64,000 nt of DNA, taken from positions 931,975 to 995,974 of the forward strand of contig NZ_CANLOZ010000001.1 of assembly GCF_947492965.1 (NCBI RefSeq). The letters run 5' to 3'. Positions 11,225-21,362 of this stretch are shown in pieces. This stretch comes from an uncultured Aquimarina sp. (lineage in GTDB: Bacteria; Bacteroidota; Bacteroidia; Flavobacteriales; Flavobacteriaceae). A program made the translations under genes and the position numbers. The notes below the pieces were generated by a model. It was not told the DNA's origin, searched no databases, and worked only from the letters and a program-made list of their open reading frames with translations. Position 1 is the stretch's first letter. Each line of letters starts with the position of its first letter.

Positions 11225-12088
11225 TTATCCTAAATAAGTTTTTAATATTTTACTACGAGATGTATGTTTTAATCTACGAATAGCTTTCTCTTTAATTTGT
11301 CTTACACGCTCACGAGTTAAGTCAAAAGTTTCGCCAATTTCCTCTAAAGTCATAGGGTGTTGATCTCCTAGACCAAAGTATAAACGGATTACATCAGCTT
11401 CTCTTGGTGTTAGTGTTTCTAAAGCACGCTCAATTTCGGTGCGAAGTGATTCATGCAATAGAGATCTATCAGGATTTGGAGATTCTCCAGAATTTAGTAC
11501 ATCATATAAGTTAGAATCTTCACCTTCTACTAAAGGAGCGTCCATACTTACATGACGACCAGAATTTTTCATGGATTCCTTTACGTCATTGATCGTCATG
11601 TCTAATTCTTTAGCGATCTCTTCTGCACTAGGTGGTCTTTCGTGAGATTGCTCTAAGAAAGCATATGTCTTATTTATCTTATTGATCGAACCGATTTTAT
11701 TTAATGGTAATCGAACAATACGTGATTGTTCTGCTAATGCTTGTAATATAGATTGACGAATCCACCATACAGCATAGGAAATAAATTTAAATCCTCTAGT
11801 TTCATCAAAACGTTTAGCAGCTTTGATCAAACCTAAGTTTCCTTCATTAATCAAATCAGGTAATGTCAATCCTTGGTTTTGATATTGTTTTGCAACAGAT
11901 ACCACAAATCGAAGATTGGCTTTTGTTAATTTTTCAAGGGCTCTCTCATCTCCAGCTTTAATGCGCTGAGCTAATTCCACCTCTTCATCTGCAGTAATAA
12001 GATCTACCTTACCTATTTCCTGCAAATACTTATCCAGCGATGCAGTTTCACGATTCGTTACCTGCTTCGTAATTTTAAGTTGTCTCAT
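11225..12088 (-). CDS. rpoD: Primary sigma factor RpoD (Bacteroidota type, no region 1.1)
   Basis: [26 protein letters not shown] and [12 protein letters not shown] motifs. Confidence 0.97.
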
Positions 12089-12145
12089 CTATGTTATCCT
12101 TGAAATTTAATATTGTGAATATTTAGGGCTTCTCTTTTCTTAATT

Positions 12146-12172
12146 ATACGTAAGGTGTTACGAAAATGTTAC
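12146..12172 (-). promoter_or_regulatory. Candidate ECF-type promoter upstream of rpoD
   Basis: Minus strand reads GTAAC-N17-CGTAT. Confidence 0.4.
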
Positions 12173-12262
12173 AAAAAAGTAAAATTATTTTTTTATATGC
12201 ACTATTACTGCCTTAAGTATTGGTAGTATATGAGTCGTAATAGGAGCTAAAAGTTTACGAGC

Positions 12263-13231
12263 TTATTCGAATTCTAGTACATTTTTGGCAATAATTAATG
12301 AACGTAAGGCTTCAATTTTTTTCTGCATTTTATTAAAAAATAAATTTCTTTCTTTTTCTCCCGCAGTACTTAATAATTTAGAACCTTCCATTTGTATATT
12401 TAGAAATTCTTCGGCTTGATCACAAGTGATCACATCGTTGGTCCTATAATAAGAAAGAATGGTAAAAGGGACATAGAGCGATCTTTCAGTAGGTGTTTTT
12501 ACCAATACGCGGTTGTTCATGAGTAACAATTCATTATAGTAGAACTTAAAATTATCTTTTTGCTCAATTATTTTTCTAGAAATTTGATGTAGTAACTGTT
12601 GCAGGTCATCACAGATTTGTAAAGCATCTTTAGAAGTAAGAGAATCGGATTCGAAATAAAAGTGTATCTGTTTTAATGTACTATTAATGGTAGTGATGTC
12701 CCAAATTTCTATAGAGTTAAGATCATTGTACATTTTTCCTAATCTTTTAGCAGCCTCAATTAAGGATAGAGAAGGATTAAATCCAGTGAATTTTACATCA
12801 CCAAGTTCAGAATCCATAATTTTTAACCATACATACATCTTAAATTTAGAAAGTAGATTATCATCAGAAGTATAGAATATTGGTAAATCTTTGGCTGAAT
12901 AAATCATCTCTACATTAGGGTTGTTAATGAGCGGAGATAAAGATTTATAAGAGTTTTCATAGTATGCCAGTAAGCTTTTCATATCCTGAACTGGAGCTGT
13001 TTTTTTTACTGCCACAATATGCTCATCTTCACTAGAAAACAACTGATCAATGGATAAACTGAAGTATTTGGCCAGTGTTACTCCTTCTTCAAGAGATAAC
13101 TTACTTTTTTTACTAATTCTTCTATGAGCAGCATCATAGCTTATATCTAAAGCTGTTGCTACTTCATCGATGAGCGAAGTTTTAGAGCAGATTTGTTTTT
13201 TAATAAGCTCTAAAAAATTTTCTTGTATCAT
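12263..13231 (-). CDS. Uncharacterised transcription regulator with N-terminal XRE-like HTH and ~250-aa C-terminal domain
   Basis: VATALDISYDAAHRRISKKSKLSLEE...YFSLSIDQL helix-turn-helix pattern. Confidence 0.75.
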   Translation of the reverse strand: MIQENFLELIKKQICSKTSLIDEVATALDISYDAAHRRISKKSKLSLEEGVTLAKYFSLSIDQLFSSEDEHIVAVKKTAPVQDMKSLLAYYENSYKSLSPLINNPNVEMIYSAKDLPIFYTSDDNLLSKFKMYVWLKIMDSELGDVKFTGFNPSLSLIEAAKRLGKMYNDLNSIEIWDITTINSTLKQIHFYFESDSLTSKDALQICDDLQQLLHQISRKIIEQKDNFKFYYNELLLMNNRVLVKTPTERSLYVPFTILSYYRTNDVITCDQAEEFLNIQMEGSKLLSTAGEKERNLFFNKMQKKIEALRSLIIAKNVLEFE

Positions 13232-13265
13232 TCCTTATTTTTTTACGATTGATGATAGTGCGATG

Positions 13266-13447
13266 GAAAAATAAGATAGAAAAATAATTCAATTTTGTGA
13301 TTTTCGCAAAAAATATAAAGTGTCTTTGTGATTTTTAATTTTTTCACAAATACAAAATTAGGAGATATTAATTTGCGAAAATCACAAAAAAATAAAATCC
13401 TTTTCGCACTTATCACTTTTTGTCTTGTACTTATCACAATAGTTTTG
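13266..13447. promoter_or_regulatory. Divergent promoter region with multiple TTGTGAT-N-(A/T)TCRCAA boxes
   Basis: Boxes at 13295, 13326, 13373, 13404 and 13425; -7 elements TAGTTTTG (13440-13447, plus) and TATTTTTC (13266-13273, minus). Confidence 0.75.
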
Positions 13448-13474
13448 ACTTGTGAAATTTTAAAAACAAGAAAA

Positions 13475-14239
13475 ATGAGAATTAGTATTTTAACCTTAAT
13501 GGTATTGGTAATAAGCAGAATTACTTTCGGACAAGACAATGAGGTAGTAGCACCAATTGGTTTTTTTAATAGTACAAATACGGATGTTTATGGTTTGTCG
13601 ATTGGTTTGGCGCAAAAGAAAGTAGAACCAGACACGAAGACAACAAAATCAAATGGGTTGAGAATTGAACCTTTCGGTAAAGGTTTTTCGATATTTTTTA
13701 CTCCCAAAATCGGACTACCTGATAAAGAAAGTGAATTTGAAAATTATTTCAATCGGAAACCTACAGAGATCGTAAATGGAATAAATGTTTCTGGTGGAAC
13801 TTTATCATTTATGGATATTAATGGGATTTCTGTTTCTGGAGGAGTTCAAGCTTTAAGAAGAATGAATGGGATATCTATAACAGGATTCGGTAATTATTCT
13901 TACAAAGTAAATGGAATTCAATTAGCTGTTTATGGCAGCTCTACTTATGTTTTACGAGGTGTTCTCTTTGGAATGCTTGGTAGTTATGTTGTGGATGGAA
14001 AAGGGATTCAAATATCAGGATTTAATGACTTTAAGACATTTAAGGGATTGCAAATAGGTGCTTGGAACGATATTGAATCCAAAAGTGAGAGTTTTGAAGG
14101 GGTTCAAATAGGAATTCTTAATAATACAAAAACACTAAAAGGTATTCAAATAGGGCTTTGGAATAAAAATGAAAGACGCTCTTTGCCTTTTATCAATTGG
14201 CAATTTTCTAAAAAGAAAAATAAATCAAAAACATCTTAG
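13475..14239 (+). CDS. Secreted LA_2272-like surface repeat protein
   Basis: Signal peptide from ATG 13475; repeated G(I/L/V)Q(I/L)G / NGIS units; ends GLWNKNERRSLPFINWQF. Confidence 0.75.
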   Translation: MRISILTLMVLVISRITFGQDNEVVAPIGFFNSTNTDVYGLSIGLAQKKVEPDTKTTKSNGLRIEPFGKGFSIFFTPKIGLPDKESEFENYFNRKPTEIVNGINVSGGTLSFMDINGISVSGGVQALRRMNGISITGFGNYSYKVNGIQLAVYGSSTYVLRGVLFGMLGSYVVDGKGIQISGFNDFKTFKGLQIGAWNDIESKSESFEGVQIGILNNTKTLKGIQIGLWNKNERRSLPFINWQFSKKKNKSKTS

Positions 14240-14241
14240 TA

Positions 14242-14631
14242 ATGATGAATATCACTAGCAACTTAAGCATCGAAGGGGACTATGGTTTCGAAGCTTTTTA
14301 CGTACTTACTGGAAACTTGGTTGGTCTTATTCCGGTAAAAGAAAAATTGTACACTCGCATTAAAGTGTTGGATAAAGAGACATTAAAAATTTGTTTAATG
14401 AAATCTGAAACACTAAAAGTGTCAAAATATATTAAAGGATCACTAAAAGATGGGATTTTTAGTGTTTCCTCTTCTAATAAGATTACTTCTGTATTATCAT
14501 TTATTAAACATTGGCGGACACAGAAAATAAATGCGAATTCTAAAAAAGAACAACTATTGGTGTTCTTATCTAAAACAGGAAATGTTCAACTAGGGGTTTT
14601 TAAGGATATTACTTCTAGAAAAAAGAAGTAG
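14242..14631 (+). CDS. Hypothetical protein, possibly a 5'-truncated remnant
   Basis: Open frame 2 nt after the upstream stop; no signal peptide or recognised motif. Confidence 0.4.
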   Translation: MMNITSNLSIEGDYGFEAFYVLTGNLVGLIPVKEKLYTRIKVLDKETLKICLMKSETLKVSKYIKGSLKDGIFSVSSSNKITSVLSFIKHWRTQKINANSKKEQLLVFLSKTGNVQLGVFKDITSRKKK

Positions 14632-14758
14632 TATGTTGAATGATCTAAAAAGGAGCACTTAGTTTATATCTTATAAACTCTTCGTATTAATTCAGGTTAA
14701 TTCACCATATGTGGAATATTAGAAGGTATGCCTTCTCATATATCCAAAGGACTGTTAT

Positions 14759-15880
14759 ATGTCTAATTTTAAAGAAATAATTATGCAAAAAATAAAATTT
14801 TCTAAAGATGAAGGTTCTGAATTTTATAAAGAACTTACCGAGAAGATTCGAGAATATTTTGAGTCTAATAGGTTGGAGAAATTCGGAAATAATAAGATGA
14901 TTTTTAAAATCATTCTATATTTTATGATGGTAGTCTTGTTGTATGTTCTGATGATAACGTCATCAAATATAATCGGTTTTTACTTGTTGTATTTAGGTCT
15001 GGGAATATCAGTTTTGTTAACAGCATTTAATGTATCTCATGATGCAGCGCATGGAGTGGCAGTAAAAAGTAAATTCTGGAATAAAATTTTGTTTCAGTTA
15101 AGCTTTAATTTACAAGGCAATAATGCATATGTATGGGGCAAAAATCATAATGAATCCCATCATTTGTATACTAATATTGAAGGAAGTGATATCGATGTGT
15201 TAAATAATCCTCTTGTTAGGATGACAACAAGTCAAAAGGTACGTTGGTATCATAGATTTCAATATTTATATGTGCCATTTTTATATTTGTTTTATTCTCT
15301 TAATTGGTTTTTGTTTAGAGAGTTTTTAATGATATTTAATCGCTCGAGTAGGACAATTAAGGTTGCAATTCCGGCATGGGAAATCGTAAAGCTTTTGTTC
15401 TTTAAAGTACTTTATGTGGGTTACATGATTGTTATTCCTGACTTGTTATTGCCATTTGGTTGGGAGCATATTGTAGTAGCTTTTATGCTCAATCACTTTC
15501 TAATTTCTATCATATTTACTGCGGTTTTAGGAGTATCTCATTTATCGGATTTTGTAGCACATCCCGAAGCTGATAAAGAAGGTAATTTGTCGATGAGTTG
15601 GCCAAAGTTGCAGATGTGTACTTCGGTTGATTATAATGTGGATAGCAAATTTTTAAACTGGGTTTTAGGAGGATTTAATGCACATGCTTTACATCATTTA
15701 TTACCAAATATATGTCATGTACATTATATAAAATTGGCTCCGATATTTAGAGAATTAGCAAATAAACATAGTATTACGTACATGGAGATGCCATATCGTG
15801 ATGCCCTAAAATCACATTTTAGGTTTCTAAAGAAAATGGGAACACAAGAATCACCAAAACCTTTGCAATATGAAATCTAA
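14759..15880 (+). CDS. Membrane fatty acid desaturase A
   Basis: His boxes HDAAH, HNESHH and HALHH; alternative start at 14783. Confidence 0.92.
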   Translation: MSNFKEIIMQKIKFSKDEGSEFYKELTEKIREYFESNRLEKFGNNKMIFKIILYFMMVVLLYVLMITSSNIIGFYLLYLGLGISVLLTAFNVSHDAAHGVAVKSKFWNKILFQLSFNLQGNNAYVWGKNHNESHHLYTNIEGSDIDVLNNPLVRMTTSQKVRWYHRFQYLYVPFLYLFYSLNWFLFREFLMIFNRSSRTIKVAIPAWEIVKLLFFKVLYVGYMIVIPDLLLPFGWEHIVVAFMLNHFLISIIFTAVLGVSHLSDFVAHPEADKEGNLSMSWPKLQMCTSVDYNVDSKFLNWVLGGFNAHALHHLLPNICHVHYIKLAPIFRELANKHSITYMEMPYRDALKSHFRFLKKMGTQESPKPLQYEI

Positions 15881-16925
15881 GCATTTATATATTAAAGATC
15901 ATGTAGAGCTTTTTGGTGCTATTCAGGAAGAGATCTACAAAAAAATTAATTTCTGTAATCGAAGATTTCAGAAAAAGATGTTCTTAAAGGGATTCATTTA
16001 TTTTTCCTTTACACTAATTTCATATAGTTTTATTTATCAAATATCACAACCGCAATTGTTGGTATTGGCTTATGTTGTTTTTGGGTTAGTTTCTATGTTA
16101 TTCGCATTTAACTTTGCGCACGATTTTTCGCATAACACAATTTTTAAGAAAAAGGAGTTAAATCATAAATGTTTCATTGCTCTTTATACGATGGTAGGAG
16201 CTCATGCAGAAGCATGGAAAGATAGGCATGTAACATCCCATCATCATGCTCCTAATGTTGAAGGTTATGATACAGATTTAGAAATTACGAATTTAATAAG
16301 AGTAGTTCCTGGTTCGAAGATGAAATGGTTTCACCGTTTCCAATATTTGTATGCTCCTTTTTTGTATACAACGTATTCATTGTTCTGGGTTTTTATCAAA
16401 GATTTTAAAGTGTTTTTTAGCGACTTTGGTAATCACAAGAAACATTCTTTAGCATACAAGTTTTCTTTTTGGTGTCAAAAAATAGTTTATCTAAGCTATT
16501 TGGTGTTATTGCCTATGATATTTATTGACCTAAAATGGTATTGGGTAATAGTAGCATTTATAAGTATGCATATGGTACAATCGCTATTTTTATTGTTTAC
16601 CTTTTTTATGACACATCATATAAAAGGTCTGGCATATCCCGAAAAAGACACTTCTGGTAAGATAAAAACATCATGGTTCATGAATCAGGTGCAAAGTTCA
16701 AATGATTTTTATCCTTTTAGTAAGTTTGCAAATTTTATATTCGGAGGATTTAATAATCATATTGCTCATCATCTTTTCCCACATATTCATCATGTTTATT
16801 ATCCAGAACTGAATAAAATTCTATATTCTGTATTAAGGAAACATCAAATCATTCCCAATCAAACTTCTTATTTTGGTGGAGTAGTAGCTCACTTATTACA
16901 TCTAAAACAATTGGGGATAGAATAA
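15870..16925 (+). CDS. Membrane fatty acid desaturase B
   Basis: His boxes HDFSH, HVTSHH and HIAHH; overlaps the upstream gene by 11 nt. Confidence 0.92.
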   Translation: MKSKHLYIKDHVELFGAIQEEIYKKINFCNRRFQKKMFLKGFIYFSFTLISYSFIYQISQPQLLVLAYVVFGLVSMLFAFNFAHDFSHNTIFKKKELNHKCFIALYTMVGAHAEAWKDRHVTSHHHAPNVEGYDTDLEITNLIRVVPGSKMKWFHRFQYLYAPFLYTTYSLFWVFIKDFKVFFSDFGNHKKHSLAYKFSFWCQKIVYLSYLVLLPMIFIDLKWYWVIVAFISMHMVQSLFLLFTFFMTHHIKGLAYPEKDTSGKIKTSWFMNQVQSSNDFYPFSKFANFIFGGFNNHIAHHLFPHIHHVYYPELNKILYSVLRKHQIIPNQTSYFGGVVAHLLHLKQLGIE

Positions 16926-16957
16926 TAAATTTTTGTAATCAATAAAATAGGATTGAA

Positions 16958-16989
16958 GCACCTTCATTTTTTTTGAAGGTGTTTTTTTT
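16958..16989 (+). terminator. Rho-independent terminator
   Basis: caccttca / tgaaggtg stem followed by T8. Confidence 0.8.
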
Positions 16990-17002
16990 GAAGATTCCTG
17001 AA

Positions 17003-17077
17003 TTGTGATTATCACAAGAATAAAATTTCATACTCGTGATTTTAACAATTGTAGTTCTCAGATAGCAAGTATGTTTG
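17003..17077 (+). promoter_or_regulatory. Two operator boxes plus -7 promoter element
   Basis: ttgtgattatcacaa (17003), tcgtgattttaacaa (17034) and TATGTTTG (17070). Confidence 0.8.
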
Positions 17078-17107
17078 GTTCACTAAACAATTTTAAAACA
17101 ATTTGAT

Positions 17108-17935
17108 ATGATGAAAAAGTTTATGAAACAAGGAGTGTTTTTAGTGGCACTTCAATCCTTGATTAGTTGTTCCGTTACCAGTCCATTTAAAGCCTACACT
17201 ACTGCTAGTCATGGTTCGGTAAACTCGTATATAGCAAAACCATTGTATAATGGTGAGAACACCTCTAAAATTTATGCTTCGGGAACCATTGATATAGCCA
17301 AACAGGAGCAATTTAGACAGCAGGAAGATGATCGAAAAACCGTGGCATCTTTAGATGTATATCAATCTTTTTCACGAAAGTGGTTAAATTTCTTTTATGG
17401 TGCTAATGCCGCTTACGGGACATTTACCTTTAAGGGAGAGGAATTAGATGAGAACTCGGGTCGAACCATTATAGCTTTAGATGAAAAGCTGGATTTTTAT
17501 AATATAGGACTAAAGGCAGGAGTTAATTTTAAGGTGTCTACTTCTAAATTCGATTTTAGACCGATTGGGCTAAAAGTTATGTATACCTATGAGTTTGGAC
17601 CCTATCAGGATAAATTAGATGAAATTGAAAATATAGCTTTTCAGGATTATAATGTATTTAATAAAAAATCCTTTTTTACAATTCTAGCTGAAAGTGAAGC
17701 GGTTTATAAGATTAATATCAATAATTCTGTGAGTTTAGGTGCCTTTTCGGGATTTAATACAATCAGAGATGCTGGAGCACCAATTATAGGAGGGATGGCA
17801 AGTTATAGATATAAAAGATTAACGTTTAGTTACTTGTTTCAGTCAACATATATTGATACAGAAGAGGTTCAAGGGGAAAGAAAAAGTATAGAAATAGGTG
17901 CTCATAAAATCGGAATCGCATTTGAACTTTTTTAA
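17108..17935 (+). CDS. Hypothetical outer-membrane protein with lipoprotein signal and beta-barrel-like C-terminus
   Basis: LQSLIS-C lipobox; amphipathic strands; terminal FELF. Confidence 0.7.
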   Translation: MMKKFMKQGVFLVALQSLISCSVTSPFKAYTTASHGSVNSYIAKPLYNGENTSKIYASGTIDIAKQEQFRQQEDDRKTVASLDVYQSFSRKWLNFFYGANAAYGTFTFKGEELDENSGRTIIALDEKLDFYNIGLKAGVNFKVSTSKFDFRPIGLKVMYTYEFGPYQDKLDEIENIAFQDYNVFNKKSFFTILAESEAVYKININNSVSLGAFSGFNTIRDAGAPIIGGMASYRYKRLTFSYLFQSTYIDTEEVQGERKSIEIGAHKIGIAFELF

Positions 17936-17981
17936 TAAATAATAGATAACGTATAAGTTGAGGTGTTATCTATTTCCACAA

Positions 17982-18056
17982 TTGTGATTATCGCAAGAAC
18001 AAAATATAATACTCGTGATTTTGACAACTAAGACTGTGGAATTGCTATTATGTTTA
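17982..18056 (+). promoter_or_regulatory. Two operator boxes plus -7 promoter element
   Basis: ttgtgattatcgcaa (17982), tcgtgattttgacaa (18013) and TATGTTTA (18049). Confidence 0.8.
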
Positions 18057-18081
18057 CATCACTAAACAATAAATTTTTAAT

Positions 18082-18801
18082 ATGATGAAAAAGTTGGTCA
18101 GTGTTACAATTCTATTCTTATGTGTTTCAAAATATAGTTATAGTCAGAATTTAGATAACGATCAAAAACAAAGAAGAGAGAAGAAACCAATTGCCTTTAC
18201 CAATGGTTTTAGCTCTATTGCCAGTGATGAAAGTAATGAGCTGGATATTTACGGAGGTATTATGTTTGAACGAAAAAACGGATGGGGATATGGATTTGAT
18301 TTTACAAGATCTGCCTACACCGCAGAAAGTACAAAAGGTATCCCTCCAATAGATGAGATAGAAAACTTTGAAGGAACAGAATTACCTGAAGGAATTGAAA
18401 AAAGATTTCCTTATAGTGGTGAGAGGGATAATAGGTTGTATGCGTTATCTCCTAATTTATTTAAGTCTTTTGCTCTTAACAAGAAAAGGTCTTTTAAGAT
18501 ATTTGCTATGCTAGGTCCTTCTATTATCTATAGCGAAGACTATGAGTATGCTGTTGAATATTCTCCAGGATCTACTTGTGGTTTTGGAGGTTTTTGTTTT
18601 CCCGGTTCATCGGGGCCATCTTTGGATTATAGGAGAGTACAAGAAAGTAAGAAAATCATTCTTGGGGGATTTTCTAAGATATCTTTGCGATATACATTTA
18701 ATAGTGTAGTAGGTCTCGAACTTTCTACTTACGGTAATCTCAATGGGGTTAAAAGTGTATATGGTTTTCAGTTTGGTGTTGTCTTAGGAAGACTTTTCTA
18801 A
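18082..18801 (+). CDS. Hypothetical outer-membrane beta-barrel protein
   Basis: Signal peptide (YSYS-Q), amphipathic strands, terminal Phe and a CGFGGFC loop. Confidence 0.7.
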   Translation: MMKKLVSVTILFLCVSKYSYSQNLDNDQKQRREKKPIAFTNGFSSIASDESNELDIYGGIMFERKNGWGYGFDFTRSAYTAESTKGIPPIDEIENFEGTELPEGIEKRFPYSGERDNRLYALSPNLFKSFALNKKRSFKIFAMLGPSIIYSEDYEYAVEYSPGSTCGFGGFCFPGSSGPSLDYRRVQESKKIILGGFSKISLRYTFNSVVGLELSTYGNLNGVKSVYGFQFGVVLGRLF

Positions 18802-18804
18802 TAG

Positions 18805-18850
18805 AAAAAACAACCCCTCTTTAAGACCTATTAAAGAGGGGTTGTTTTTT
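18805..18850. terminator. Bidirectional terminator
   Basis: aaaaaacaacccctcttta / taaagaggggttgtttttt. Confidence 0.88.
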
Positions 18851-18854
18851 GTTG

Positions 18855-21362
18855 TTATTGTATCACAAAACGACCGTAGGCTCCTTGTATTTTAGCAATA
18901 TAAGTTCCACTACTTAAGTTATTAGTGTTAATCGTACCATTGGTACTATTAAACTCTTCTTTTAGGATTGTTCTACCTTTAAGATCAAAGACTTGTACTA
19001 AACCGATAGCTGTCTTAGAAATGATTTGGATCGGTTGGTTTTGTGAAGGAATAGGGTATAATAAAATACCCTTACTAGCTAGAGTGTTTTCATCTACTCC
19101 TAAGGTAGCATCACATTCTAGGTCACCATAGATATTCACTTCGACAATACTTGCAAAACCAGATCCTGTATTGGTACCATTGGAAGTAAACTTGATATAT
19201 CTTCCTGTTACATTGTTAAGAGCAAATAACTGCTCTGTATTTTCAGCACCACTTTCGATGGCACTATCTTGTCCTGTTAATACATTGGTAAAAGGACCAT
19301 TTTGATCATCGGCAACGGCAATATCGAAATTAATCGTTCTTTCATCAGCTTTTAAAACATGAATTCCTATTTGACTAAGGGTTCTTATACAAGATACATC
19401 GAATGTTATCGAAACTTCAGGTTCGGTATTTGCGTCTCCTGTCCAATATTCAGATGCGGTTACATTATCATCCCAAGCAAATTGAGGTCCAACATTAGGT
19501 TTTCCTTGTTCAGTTCCTATTGCAGTTGCGTCTACTATGGTGATTTCTTCTGAAAAAAGATTAGACTGTATAATGTTTACTGTAGTGGTTAAATCACTTC
19601 CTCCAGGAGTCTCATTAATGGTTAAGGTTGCGGTACGCTGTGCATTAGTATTATTCTCTGTATAGTCAACTGTAATTATTGCAGAGTTGCTTCCCGAAAC
19701 ATTATCAACTGTTATCCAAGCGGAGTTTTCGGTTATAGTCCAGTTAACATTAGCATTGATTTCAAACGAAATGTTTCCTCCACTTCGATTTGCGTTCAAT
19801 GTTGTTGGAGTAGCTGTTAGTCTTGGAGTATCCATTCCAGTTCCACCAAAACCAATACTCACACCTACATCGGCAGTTGTGTATGGAATACGAGATCCAC
19901 CTGAATTGAATTCTTCTGCACCTGCATCAAGGCTTCCAGAACGAGTACCTCCTAAGATGTCCGTAGTAACAAAAGGGTAGTTACCAACTGCTGCGTCGAT
20001 AGCAGGACTGTTAGAACCTAATTCATAATAAAAAGGACCATTTTCTAAAAGTCCAGATGTTACTACTTGGTTACTATTAGTGCCCGTTGAAAGATCCCAG
20101 GAACCATTTTGTGTTATATTTCCTTGATATACGGATGTTCCTGTTGGTGCTGTTTGCTCGTCAACTGCACTTTCTGCAGTATTAATCATGATATTATTTG
20201 CAATAATTAAGTTTTCTGGTGCTAAGCTTAAGTTACCTCCAACATTAGTTCCGATTCTAAAACCATAATCACAGTTTACAAAAGTATTATTTACTATAGT
20301 AGCATCAATAACCTGATAATATCCATTAAGGGCTGTATTAGGTCTTCCATTACTAACATTAATAGCTCCAGCTGTACTAGTGTTGCTACCATCTGGTTTT
20401 TCAGAATTTACTCCTTCAATATAGTTGTTATATACTCTATGTCCTTCTCCAATTACACGAATACCACCCGAAAAAAGATTGTTTTGGGCAAAAAAGAAGT
20501 TGTTGTATACTTCGCAGTTATCACCATGGCGTAATGTTAACGTTCCTTGATAGTCTCTAAAAGTATTATTGTAATATTTGTTTTCACCACTTTTGTTTGA
20601 AATAATTTCTACTTCTCCAGACCAGTTGTAAAATAGATTGTCATAAACTTCAGTATTAGAAGGATGTAATGAGGTGCTACTGTTTCCTATTCTAATAGCA
20701 TCTTGATCATTATCCTGATTAACCTCTCTAATTGGTGTACGATCTGCAAAATAGTTATGATGAATTTTTGTAAAATCAGGCTCTGCAAATTCAGTAGAAG
20801 TAGCATTTCTATTGTCGTTGATAATACTACCAATACCATGTTTTCCAATAAATGAACTGAAGCTAATTTCGTTATATTGTCCGTACACCACAATCCATTT
20901 GAAAGTTAAGGTTTCTTGTGATGTAGTTCCATTATAACTATCTACTTTTATATTTGTTACTGTACAATGATCACATTCATTGTTACTACTATCTCTAAAC
21001 TCAATTATAGGTTCTATTGTACTTCCGCTAGTGCTTAAGTTTGATGGATTTTGAAAAACTACTCCTTCAAAAACAACATAGGAACCACCCATACTTACTC
21101 TAGAATTACCTTCGAAAAAAACTGAACCTGGAGTTTGTGCTTTGATAGTAACTGGATTTGTTTCCGTGCCATTTTTATTGATGTTTATGACCACATTTGT
21201 CCAAGTTCCATTAGCTAGTGTAATGGTAGATCCTGCGGATGCATTAGTGATAGCGCTTTGTAATTCAGAATTGTTAGAAACTGTTTGTGCAAATATTGGG
21301 GTATTTGCAAAAGTCAGCAATACACAAATGACGATTGTGCTTGTTAAGATTTTAATGTTCAT
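18855..21362 (-). CDS. Polysaccharide lyase family 6 (alginate lyase / chondroitinase B fold) with BACON, F5/8-type C (CBM32-like) and T9SS C-terminal domains
   Basis: PL6 N-terminus (ASAGSTITLANGTW); NDQDAIRIG, GEVEIISNKS and TLRHG catalytic motifs; LYPIPS...GTYIAKI CTD. Confidence 0.9.
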   Translation of the reverse strand: MNIKILTSTIVICVLLTFANTPIFAQTVSNNSELQSAITNASAGSTITLANGTWTNVVININKNGTETNPVTIKAQTPGSVFFEGNSRVSMGGSYVVFEGVVFQNPSNLSTSGSTIEPIIEFRDSSNNECDHCTVTNIKVDSYNGTTSQETLTFKWIVVYGQYNEISFSSFIGKHGIGSIINDNRNATSTEFAEPDFTKIHHNYFADRTPIREVNQDNDQDAIRIGNSSTSLHPSNTEVYDNLFYNWSGEVEIISNKSGENKYYNNTFRDYQGTLTLRHGDNCEVYNNFFFAQNNLFSGGIRVIGEGHRVYNNYIEGVNSEKPDGSNTSTAGAINVSNGRPNTALNGYYQVIDATIVNNTFVNCDYGFRIGTNVGGNLSLAPENLIIANNIMINTAESAVDEQTAPTGTSVYQGNITQNGSWDLSTGTNSNQVVTSGLLENGPFYYELGSNSPAIDAAVGNYPFVTTDILGGTRSGSLDAGAEEFNSGGSRIPYTTADVGVSIGFGGTGMDTPRLTATPTTLNANRSGGNISFEINANVNWTITENSAWITVDNVSGSNSAIITVDYTENNTNAQRTATLTINETPGGSDLTTTVNIIQSNLFSEEITIVDATAIGTEQGKPNVGPQFAWDDNVTASEYWTGDANTEPEVSITFDVSCIRTLSQIGIHVLKADERTINFDIAVADDQNGPFTNVLTGQDSAIESGAENTEQLFALNNVTGRYIKFTSNGTNTGSGFASIVEVNIYGDLECDATLGVDENTLASKGILLYPIPSQNQPIQIISKTAIGLVQVFDLKGRTILKEEFNSTNGTINTNNLSSGTYIAKIQGAYGRFVIQ

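Follow-up and report, generated by a model that had tools for sequence, protein, structure and literature searches.

A 64-kb stretch of DNA from an uncultured Aquimarina sp. (contig NZ_CANLOZ010000001.1, positions 931,975 to 995,974; hereafter the window) carries a gene for a helix-turn-helix (HTH) protein of 322 amino acids (aa), here termed REG, and, around it, several copies of a 15-bp palindrome. This arrangement raises the question of whether REG binds these boxes and, if so, which genes it controls and in which direction. The original prediction, made from the window alone, described four promoters with identical two-box geometry, that of REG included, and proposed that the adjacent HTH protein activates all of them cooperatively. 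From a comparison with related genomes and metagenome contigs we arrive at a partly different reading, to which we assign a probability of roughly 0.7: REG would belong to a Bacteroidota-wide, uncharacterised family of one-component regulators, use the palindrome as its operator at phased sites, repress its own gene and operate a two-state switch at promoters of envelope genes.

The boxes were defined with a position weight matrix (PWM), to which each of 80 related genome loci (from Aquimarina, Winogradskyella, Psychroserpens, Olleya, Dokdonia, Kordia, Lacinutrix, Bizionia, Altibacter, Aureisphaera and Spongiimicrobium) contributed the best box ahead of its regulator gene; the 15-bp core of the matrix was then scanned over the window. 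The palindrome has the consensus TTGYGAW-W-WTCRCAA. Eight 15-mers in total scored at least 8 bits, seven of which, four strong (starting at 13295, 13373, 17003 and 17982) and three weaker (13425, 17034 and 18013), lay within the three intergenic regions of the gene cluster around REG. Shuffled sequence yielded 2.5 sites at this threshold, and at 14 bits or more it yielded 0.16, where the window has four. The remaining match, at 1905 (8.0 bits), lies within a coding region and was discarded as a chance match. A plain search with the consensus was less discriminating, with 14 matches against 7.2 expected.

All strings and positions quoted in the original prediction were found in the window, including the perfect palindrome at 17003 and the -7 elements at 13440, 17070, 18049 and, on the minus strand, 13273. 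Its list of boxes, by contrast, had to be revised: positions 13404 (TCGCACTTATCACTT) and 13326 (TTGTGATTTTTAATT) each depart from the consensus at five or more of its 14 specified positions, stay under 5 bits and amount to half-sites in the right register, and one of the seven boxes of the cluster, box 3 at 13425-13439, had been overlooked. The operator of REG and box 1 of the divergent LA_2272 promoter are exact mirror copies of each other within an 18-nt perfect inverted repeat (13293-13310 / 13372-13389, 61 nt apart), and this pair seems to have arisen in Aquimarina by mirror-image duplication of what in the other genera is one shared box.

Concerning the protein that binds the boxes, 72 of the 80 loci had a box with at most two mismatches no more than 110 nt ahead of the REG start codon, and of the 346 PWM matches found over 1.27 Mb, 171 fell in the 300 bp that precede REG. 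Further, the box stays with the REG gene while the divergent partner changes family between lineages. Partners encode LA_2272-repeat proteins, followed by two desaturases (Aquimarina, Psychroserpens), a family of ~220-aa proteins resembling outer-membrane proteins (OMPs), other small OMPs and lipoproteins, a 770-aa HMG-CoA-reductase/phosphotransferase fusion, a CDP-alcohol phosphatidyltransferase, desaturases directly or, in one Aquimarina, a BioF/Kbl/serine-palmitoyltransferase-like enzyme (an alpha-oxoamine synthase). The gene of OMP1, which in the window lies farther downstream, is itself the divergent partner of REG in locus L014. In three Kordia loci, no divergent open reading frame (ORF) of at least 80 aa was found, yet the box was present.

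A paralogue, REG2 (332 aa, ~39% identity), is preceded by the palindrome TTGTATTTTTTACAA or TTGCATTTTTTGCAA, ~40-50 nt ahead of its start codon, and its predicted recognition helix reads GYDAAYRR as opposed to the invariant SYDAAHRR of REG, with a tyrosine in place of His36. Because the box follows REG across partner genes, and because helix and palindrome change together in the paralogue, comparative genomics makes it highly probable that the palindrome is the operator of the adjacent 322-aa protein, and binding of the 15-bp palindrome by a REG dimer fits its linkage to the gene. The assignment of the HTH protein as the binder, originally made from proximity and autoregulatory placement, is thus upheld by the genome loci, by the paralogue and by the metagenome modules described below.

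By the same evidence it is very improbable that another factor encoded elsewhere, for instance a GntR- or CRP-like protein, binds the boxes and that the XRE protein is simply one of its targets. The inner TGTGA...TCACA does recall the half-sites of CRP, but here they are separated by N3 instead of N6. Likewise, the outer TTGT...ACAA recalls GntR/FadR-type operators (TKGT-N2-3-ACMA; PMC7641319), but its spacing is GT-N7-AC. No GntR- or CRP-like gene is conserved across the 80 loci, whereas the box tracks the REG gene through genera and partner genes, and such a factor would leave aside the joint change of recognition helix and palindrome in the paralogue.

The REG protein itself was analyzed by profile and structure searches. 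Its N-terminus is an XRE/Cro-C1-type HTH, as indicated by PDB profile matches to 3op9 (E 0.0025) and 3bs3, and Foldseek placed the HTH next to P22 c2, CylR2, SinR and DdrO (probability 0.99-1.00, target-normalised TM 0.64-0.71). Among 20 REG members, Pfam matched BetR in 15 and HTH_3 in eight, all below the curated cut-off. It is by this N-terminal domain alone that REG belongs to the XRE HTH superfamily. Residues 77-322, modelled alone, gave an alpha/beta domain with six strands (pLDDT 87.8, pTM 0.85) that had no Pfam family at E up to 1, no PDB profile match and no significant Foldseek neighbour in PDB and BFVD. Its best Foldseek matches, all sub-threshold, were PPK1 (E 0.27, TM 0.36) and a NucT-like nuclease and PPK C-terminal domain 1 (TM 0.30-0.32), and no HKD motif, which phospholipase-D-like folds usually have in the form HxK(x)4D, was seen among the invariant residues; such a fold is a weak lead, not a finding.

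Membership in known regulator families was considered and rejected in four cases. Rgg2, ComR, PlcR and PrgX, of the RRNPP group, were the top whole-chain Foldseek matches, with TM values of 0.18-0.21 that came from the HTH alone, and REG has no TPR match in Pfam. There is neither a cNMP-binding domain nor a CRP-type HTH, and the half-site spacing is N3, not the N6 of the CRP/FNR family. A GntR/FadR-type regulator would be expected at TKGT-N2-3-ACMA, as opposed to the TTGT-N7-ACAA of the box, and REG is without a GntR domain. Finally, no LysR_substrate or HTH_1 match was obtained in the Pfam and PDB searches.

The homologues of REG, 1213 in number, are of nearly fixed length (320-322 aa among the closest), and a profile search extended the family to 2225 clusters at 50% identity, nearly all of 310-345 aa, which reach Chryseobacterium and metagenome-assembled genomes of Sphingobacteriia and Bacteroidia. 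Every named member that was looked up is annotated as a hypothetical protein, and we regard the effector domain, and the family as a whole, as undescribed. Sites of the REG2 type were located at L031:3930-4098, L036:3850-4019, L038:14455-14624 and eight other loci, where the paralogue adjoins desaturase or OMP1-like genes (Psychroserpens, Dokdonia, Olleya and others).

The spacing of the boxes was next compared across the 80 loci. Distances between PWM matches showed sharp peaks at 52 bp (64 pairs) and 31 bp (23 pairs), and a -7 motif TAnnTTTG began exactly 67 nt from the start of the strong box, toward the divergent gene, in 55 loci (at +68 in two). The complete module consists of box 1, box 2 at +31, box 3 at +52, the -7 element at +67 and the ATG at about +102. 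The palindrome at +52..+66, commonly ATGTGATTATAGCAA (13.4 bits), reached 5 bits or more in the majority of the 55 divergent promoters and 18-19 bits in LA_2272-type promoters of Aquimarina; the +31 position elsewhere is usually the half-site TYGTG alone.

When read in one orientation, 30 of the 45 strong sites away from REG had TAnnTTT, followed by G or A, precisely at +67 and an ORF that begins between +100 and +107. These 30 distal promoters, 29 of them counted as Aquimarina, comprise the window's own three and others in Aquimarina loci, and their ATG lies 33-40 nt after the start of the -7 motif, which implies a 5' untranslated region (5'UTR) of ~21-28 nt. In line with these results, an independent scan of metagenome contigs with the pattern box-N52-TAnnTTTG returned 119 loci, which were judged where at least 400 nt of upstream sequence were present: a REG-family gene lay divergent to 55 modules, and to 47 of the 49 modules that also carry box 3. 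The 31-bp phasing and the +67 rule of the original prediction are real conserved features, well beyond what chance would give.

Two side observations concern the modules. At metagenome loci L087, L105, L124, L186 and L187 (also L084, L095, L145 and L160), boxes of the form TTGCGAAATTCGCAA or TTGCGATATTCACAA, unaccompanied by box 3, lie 30-75 nt from genes for proteins 24-26% identical to REG. An operator and layout of this kind may extend to more distant branches of the superfamily; the -7 element at +67 was selected here by the search pattern itself. Further, an A/T motif (AATTTTAAAAC / GAATTTAAA) is found in the 5'UTR ~20-30 nt past the start of the -7 element (13455-13467, 17088-17099 and ~18066-18076), is shared whichever gene follows (consensus over 46 loci), and may be a translation-initiation or leader element.

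Copying may have contributed to this regularity. Over 54 nt, the promoters of OMP1 and OMP2 share 87% identity, and they are alike again through the -7 element and the 5'UTR, while the two proteins have no detectable relationship (BLASTP, E 0.24); the promoters are therefore copies of one module and not independent cases. This identity, together with the different OMP gene that the type strain has in the OMP1 slot, could suggest that the boxes are not operators at all, being instead a repeated promoter cassette or an invertible or shufflable recombination site that spreads with variable surface-protein genes. We give this explanation hardly any credence. Divergence between genera has affected the linkers between the boxes and not the spacing or the half-sites, which argues for selection on a binding architecture; spread of a module is compatible with operator function; and neither long inverted repeats flanking the promoters nor a recombinase among the window genes scanned (11225-21362) were found, on which grounds an invertible or phase-variable promoter was ruled out.

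With regard to the regulator's own promoter, most of the loci from genera other than Aquimarina and Kordia have a strong box whose start overlaps the -33 TTTG of REG and which fills the spacer before TAnnTTT. About two-thirds of the 80 loci carry this TAnnTTT motif at a distance of 19-24 nt from the start of the box, and in the other genera the REG ATG is 20-36 nt from the box, which therefore lies within the core promoter. At many non-Aquimarina loci the ATG comes 3-5 nt past the motif, which suggests that the REG mRNA is leaderless there. Kordia loci have a perfect TAnnTTTG lying across the left half of the box. A TAnnnTTTG upstream of the box was also considered as the regulator's own -7 element; it is one base off consensus outside Kordia and was ranked below the downstream TAnnTTT. 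The equivalents in the window, on the minus strand, are TTTG (13310 to 13307), the box (13309 to 13295) and TATTTTTC (13286 to 13279). Because the strong box sits inside the core promoter of the regulator across genera, REG is likely to repress its own gene.

This layout is at odds with the model put forward in the original prediction, in which a cooperative activator acts at all four promoters, its own included, through two boxes just upstream of -33. What speaks for that model is found at the targets, where the centres of boxes 1 and 2, at about -72 and -41, share one helical face, the spacing is rigid and the -33 elements are weak. At the REG promoter, on the other hand, the proposed geometry is not conserved: a 13-nt tandem duplication (13262-13274 / 13275-13287; GATGGAAAAATAA / GATAGAAAAATAA) has given the minus strand two TATTTTTC motifs at a distance of 13 nt, and the -7 element at 13273 is the distal, +36 copy, present in five of 23 Aquimarina loci. 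The fourth case (13326/13295/13273) is thus a coincidence of the duplication, and the identical geometry claimed for four promoters is not supported: of the three target promoters two are copies of one module, and the promoter of the regulator has a different layout. Since the model also ignores box 3 in the spacer, counts the sub-threshold 13326 and 13404 as boxes and would require activation where the short distance between box and REG ATG in other genera places the box within the core promoter, we regard it as improbable.

The sign of regulation at the targets is a more finely balanced matter. In Flavobacterium psychrophilum, the sigma-A motif TAnnTTTG occupies -12 to -5, leaderless mRNAs make up 5.5% and 5'UTRs have a median of 24 nt (PMC9723704), in keeping with the ~21-28 nt implied for the distal promoters. 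Positioned by this motif, box 1 would span -79 to -65 (centre -72), box 2 -48 to -34 (centre -41) and box 3 -27 to -13. Activation is favoured by the strongest site being distal and the promoter-proximal ones weaker, by the invariance of the +67 distance even in promoters without box 3, and by the finding that most targets are without TTTG at the proper -33 distance though the -7 element is perfect. Repression is favoured by box 3, which lies in the spacer against a perfect -7 element, and by an experimental precedent from Zobellia, where AusR represses through operators that adjoin or cover the -7 box (PMC7641319). The presence of box 3 in the -33/-7 spacer of the presumed ancestral promoter type argues for at least one repressing state.

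These latter facts could be accommodated by a pure repressor that binds cooperatively at all boxes and, by looping or bending, occludes -33 (box 2) or the spacer (box 3) everywhere, the regulator's own promoter included, until a ligand releases it. XRE-family proteins are often repressors. The strong box inside the core promoter of REG, box 3 abutting the -7 element in the most widespread promoter type and the perfect TAnnTTTG of the targets all agree with such a mechanism, as does the strong repression exerted by AusR operators beside -7 in a marine flavobacterium (PMC7641319). It leaves unexplained why OMP-type promoters have nothing over the -7 element or the transcription start site (TSS), their strongest site lying 65-79 bp upstream and a weak site alone covering -33, why the +67 distance is stricter than simple occlusion requires, and why a well-placed -33 TTTG is absent at the targets, as it is at activator-dependent promoters. 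Pure repression is possible, and we hold it to be clearly short of an even chance. An activation-capable two-state switch, chosen because it is a single model using all three boxes, is our tentative preference for the targets, at somewhat below even odds.

The two-state switch would operate as follows. REG combines the XRE HTH with a novel 245-aa alpha/beta domain, the latter presumably for oligomerisation and sensing, and would place one dimer on each palindrome. The sites are 21, 31 and 52 bp apart, that is, two, three and five helical turns; as these are whole turns, we propose that the dimers lie on one face of the DNA and bind cooperatively. At the REG promoter, the strongest site covers the -33 TTTG and the spacer, and its occupancy would shut the gene down. 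Targets have the strong box 1 near -72 and the weak box 2 near -41, over the -33 region, to which the ancestral type adds box 3 near -20, abutting the -7 element. With boxes 1 and 3 occupied (five turns) the promoter would be off, while occupancy of boxes 1 and 2 (three turns) would position a dimer to recruit RNA polymerase to a promoter with a perfect -7 element and no proper -33; OMP-type promoters, with boxes 1 and 2 alone, would be purely activated.

The targets would serve cell-envelope functions: in the window, the LA_2272 protein, the 129-aa protein and the two desaturases as one operon, plus two small OMPs; in other lineages, small OMPs and lipoproteins, the HMG-CoA-reductase-like fusion, the CDP-alcohol phosphatidyltransferase and the alpha-oxoamine synthase. 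This gene content (desaturases, lipid enzymes, small OMPs) points to envelope or membrane state as the putative signal.

Established here are the sites with their spacing and conservation, their linkage to the regulator gene and the HTH fold, from which binding, autorepression, the sign at the targets and the signal are inferred. Several points weigh against the reading as a whole. The PWM was trained on regulator-proximal boxes, and these sites provide no independent test; the distal sites and the metagenome sample do. Box 2 is often a half-site, and the rigid spacing could come in part from copying of the promoter module within Aquimarina. Searches of sequencing runs for the window and for a Dokdonia locus turned up no usable RNA data; all TSSs are predictions from the -7 consensus, and the class I/II-like interpretation of the centres at -72 and -41 is borrowed by analogy from E. 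coli sigma-70. In this strain, either TATTTTTC copy could be the -7 element of the regulator, with that at 13286 to 13279 favoured. Finally, the structure prediction that had been suggested as a way to a ligand pocket gave a confident alpha/beta model of the C-terminal domain and no hint of a ligand in Pfam or in Foldseek searches of PDB and BFVD.

The features of the window that bear on these questions are collected in Table 1.

Table 1. Genes, candidate operators and predicted promoter elements of the REG cluster (window coordinates; scores in bits for PWM matches).
Feature	Position	Strand	Description	Evidence
rpoD	11225-12088	-	Primary sigma factor gene	
REG	12263-13231	-	Regulator, 322 aa: N-terminal XRE/Cro-C1-type HTH (~residues 1-65), linker, 245-aa alpha/beta domain	ORF
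Second TATTTTTC copy	13266-13273	-	From tandem duplication; alternative TSS ~13261	Distal copy
Favoured -7 of REG promoter	13279-13286	-	TATTTTTC, 23 nt from box start; predicted TSS ~13274	
REG operator	13295-13309	-	TTGCGAAAATCACAA; 5' end overlaps predicted -33 TTTG	PWM 22.4
Split palindrome	13326-13349		TTGTGA-N12-TCACAA, between two strong boxes; its left end is the 13326 box of the original prediction	Conserved upstream in Aquimarina; below 5 as 15-mer box
Box 1, LA_2272 operon promoter	13373-13387	+	TTGCGAAAATCACAA, predicted -79..-65	PWM 22.4
Box 2 position, LA_2272 promoter	13404-13418	+	TCGCACTTATCACTT at +31, degenerate half-site	PWM -7.3
Box 3, LA_2272 promoter	13425-13439	+	TTGTACTTATCACAA at +52, in -33/-7 spacer, abuts -7	PWM 12.2
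-7 element, LA_2272 promoter	13440-13447	+	TAGTTTTG at +67; predicted TSS ~13452, ATG 13475	Motif position after PMC9723704
LA_2272-family protein	13475-14239	+	Surface-repeat protein, signal peptide	NCBIfam NF047436, 1.1e-13
129-aa protein	14242-14631	+	Function not assigned; 2 nt past LA_2272 gene	ORF; kept in Aquimarina loci
Desaturase 1	14759-15880	+	Fatty-acid desaturase family protein	Pfam PF00487, 6e-26; synteny with LA_2272 gene (Aquimarina, Psychroserpens)
Desaturase 2	15870-16925	+	Fatty-acid desaturase family protein	Pfam PF00487, 1.7e-29
Intrinsic terminator	16955-16992	+	Closes LA_2272-desaturase operon	Hairpin -15.6 kcal/mol, z -3.9, then U8
Box 1, OMP1 promoter	17003-17017	+	TTGTGATTATCACAA, perfect palindrome	PWM 24.3
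Box 2, OMP1 promoter	17034-17048	+	Predicted centre -41	PWM 10.1; recurs in OMP-type promoters of other Aquimarina
-7 element, OMP1 promoter	17070-17077	+	TATGTTTG at +67; predicted TSS ~17082	
OMP1	17108-17935	+	Putative outer-membrane lipoprotein, 275 aa	Signal peptide, lipobox, C-terminal Phe; without family match
Box 1, OMP2 promoter	17982-17996	+		PWM 24.1
Box 2, OMP2 promoter	18013-18027	+		PWM 8.3
-7 element, OMP2 promoter	18049-18056	+	TATGTTTA at +67; predicted TSS ~18061	
OMP2	18082-18801	+	Putative outer-membrane protein, 239 aa	Signal peptide, C-terminal Phe; without family match

The targets named originally were retained: REG, the gene of the LA_2272-repeat protein together with both desaturases, and the two putative OMPs. 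In Psychroserpens, the desaturases follow the repeat gene after a gap of 8 nt. The terminator behind desaturase 2 ends ~10 bases before the box at 17003, and OMP1 therefore has its own promoter. A sigma-70 promoter scan was uninformative for this phylum and overlooked that terminator, which folding confirmed.

Among the neighbours of the cluster, rpoD lies 100-250 bp downstream of REG on the same strand in about half of the 80 loci, and several kb farther in many others; this neighbourhood spans Aquimarina, Winogradskyella, Olleya, Altibacter, Aureisphaera and Spongiimicrobium, and no box was found in the gap between REG and rpoD. At the other end lies a convergent gene (18855-21362, minus strand), whose chondroitinase-B-like product has 835 aa and combines BACON and F5/8 type C domains with a type IX secretion system sorting tail. 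The gene has a bidirectional terminator (18805-18850) in common with OMP2, and the window scan gave no box upstream of it.

The window belongs to Aquimarina litoralis or to a very near relative. The regulator of the type strain JCM 15974 (locus L001) is 100% identical to REG. In that strain, an unrelated 184-aa OMP-like gene (L001:3570-4124) occupies the slot of OMP1, flanked by the same promoter modules, and the combinations of small OMP genes behind such modules differ among other Aquimarina. This turnover of small OMPs looks like an exchange of cassettes between promoter modules. As to the 770-aa partner, it occurs divergently at L026, L034, L039, L064 and L075, and also at L171, L178 and L190, and joins an HMG-CoA-reductase domain (Pfam 2.5e-92) to an APH-type phosphotransferase domain, an architecture of which we know no description.

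A full-text literature search found no paper containing the box sequences, and a keyword search on flavobacterial desaturase regulators returned nothing relevant, with no described regulator found for the desaturase pair in this group. As far as we know, operator and regulon have been defined for few of the transcription factors in Flavobacteriaceae. What we present is a solid and widely conserved regulon prediction with an unusually rigid architecture, and no new principle. It offers a complete, directly testable cis/trans pair for an unannotated regulator family that is widespread in Bacteroidota, and ties this family to envelope and membrane-lipid genes, the desaturase pair included. The rigid architecture could teach how activators and repressors are placed at the atypical -33/-7 promoters of the phylum, and could serve regulated expression tools for marine flavobacteria.

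A broader synthesis can be sketched, which we consider unlikely in its entirety. REG would be the founding example of a Bacteroidota-wide family whose alpha/beta sensor, possibly with a degenerate PLD-like lipid-binding fold, reads the state of the membrane; the three-site operator (0, +31 and +52, with -7 at +67) would switch between repression and activation of OMPs and lipid-modifying enzymes, and the module would be a portable cassette that recruits surface-protein genes. If true, this would provide the first defined rules of activator position for sigma-A of Bacteroidota.

In their logic, the predicted REG promoters resemble LysR-type divergent promoters, at which recognition is by a strong site near -65, activation by weak sites near -35, and the regulator represses its own gene. 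Both are divergent pairs in which one strong type of palindrome lies over the regulator's own promoter and, here, 65-79 bp upstream of the predicted target TSS; in both, weaker proximal sites lie on the same helical face, in a layout compatible with a ligand-driven shift of occupancy. The likeness is an analogy of logic only, since REG has an XRE HTH and not a winged helix, has no periplasmic-binding-protein-like effector domain, and its sites are 21/31 bp apart as opposed to ~10. The control regions of AraC-type divergent genes resemble it in the same sense.

With the phage repressors of the XRE family (lambda CI, 434, P22 c2), REG has in common the HTH fold, graded multiple sites that would fit cooperative binding, and autoregulation, which is predicted here. 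The operators of 434, like the boxes here, are short palindromes with outer TTGT...ACAA, and the cI mRNA transcribed from PRM is leaderless, as predicted for the REG mRNA in most genera. In contrast to these repressors, REG is a chromosomal housekeeping-type gene near rpoD and not part of a prophage, its C-terminal domain is unrelated, and its targets belong to the envelope. The RRNPP proteins (PlcR, Rgg, ComR, PrgX) likewise consist of an XRE HTH followed by a C-terminal domain of ~250 aa, but theirs is an all-helical TPR superhelix, whereas that of REG is alpha/beta with six strands, and no peptide gene is evident.

The CRP/FNR family has the half-site letters TGTGA/TCACA in common with the box, and the predicted centres near -41 and -72 correspond to class II and class I positions, but the half-sites are 3 bp apart here instead of 6, and REG has neither of the domains that define that family, the cNMP-binding domain and the CRP-type HTH. 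A parallel from the same family of bacteria, the Flavobacteriaceae, is AusR of Zobellia galactanivorans, a GntR/FadR regulator with one to three operators beside or over TAnnTTTG, autoregulation and cooperative binding, the last shown for AusR (PMC7641319). AusR differs in protein family and in its operator, TKGT-N2-3-ACMA, and its operators lie 3 bp apart over the -7 element (PMC7641319), whereas in the REG modules the strongest site stands 52 bp upstream of the -7-proximal one.

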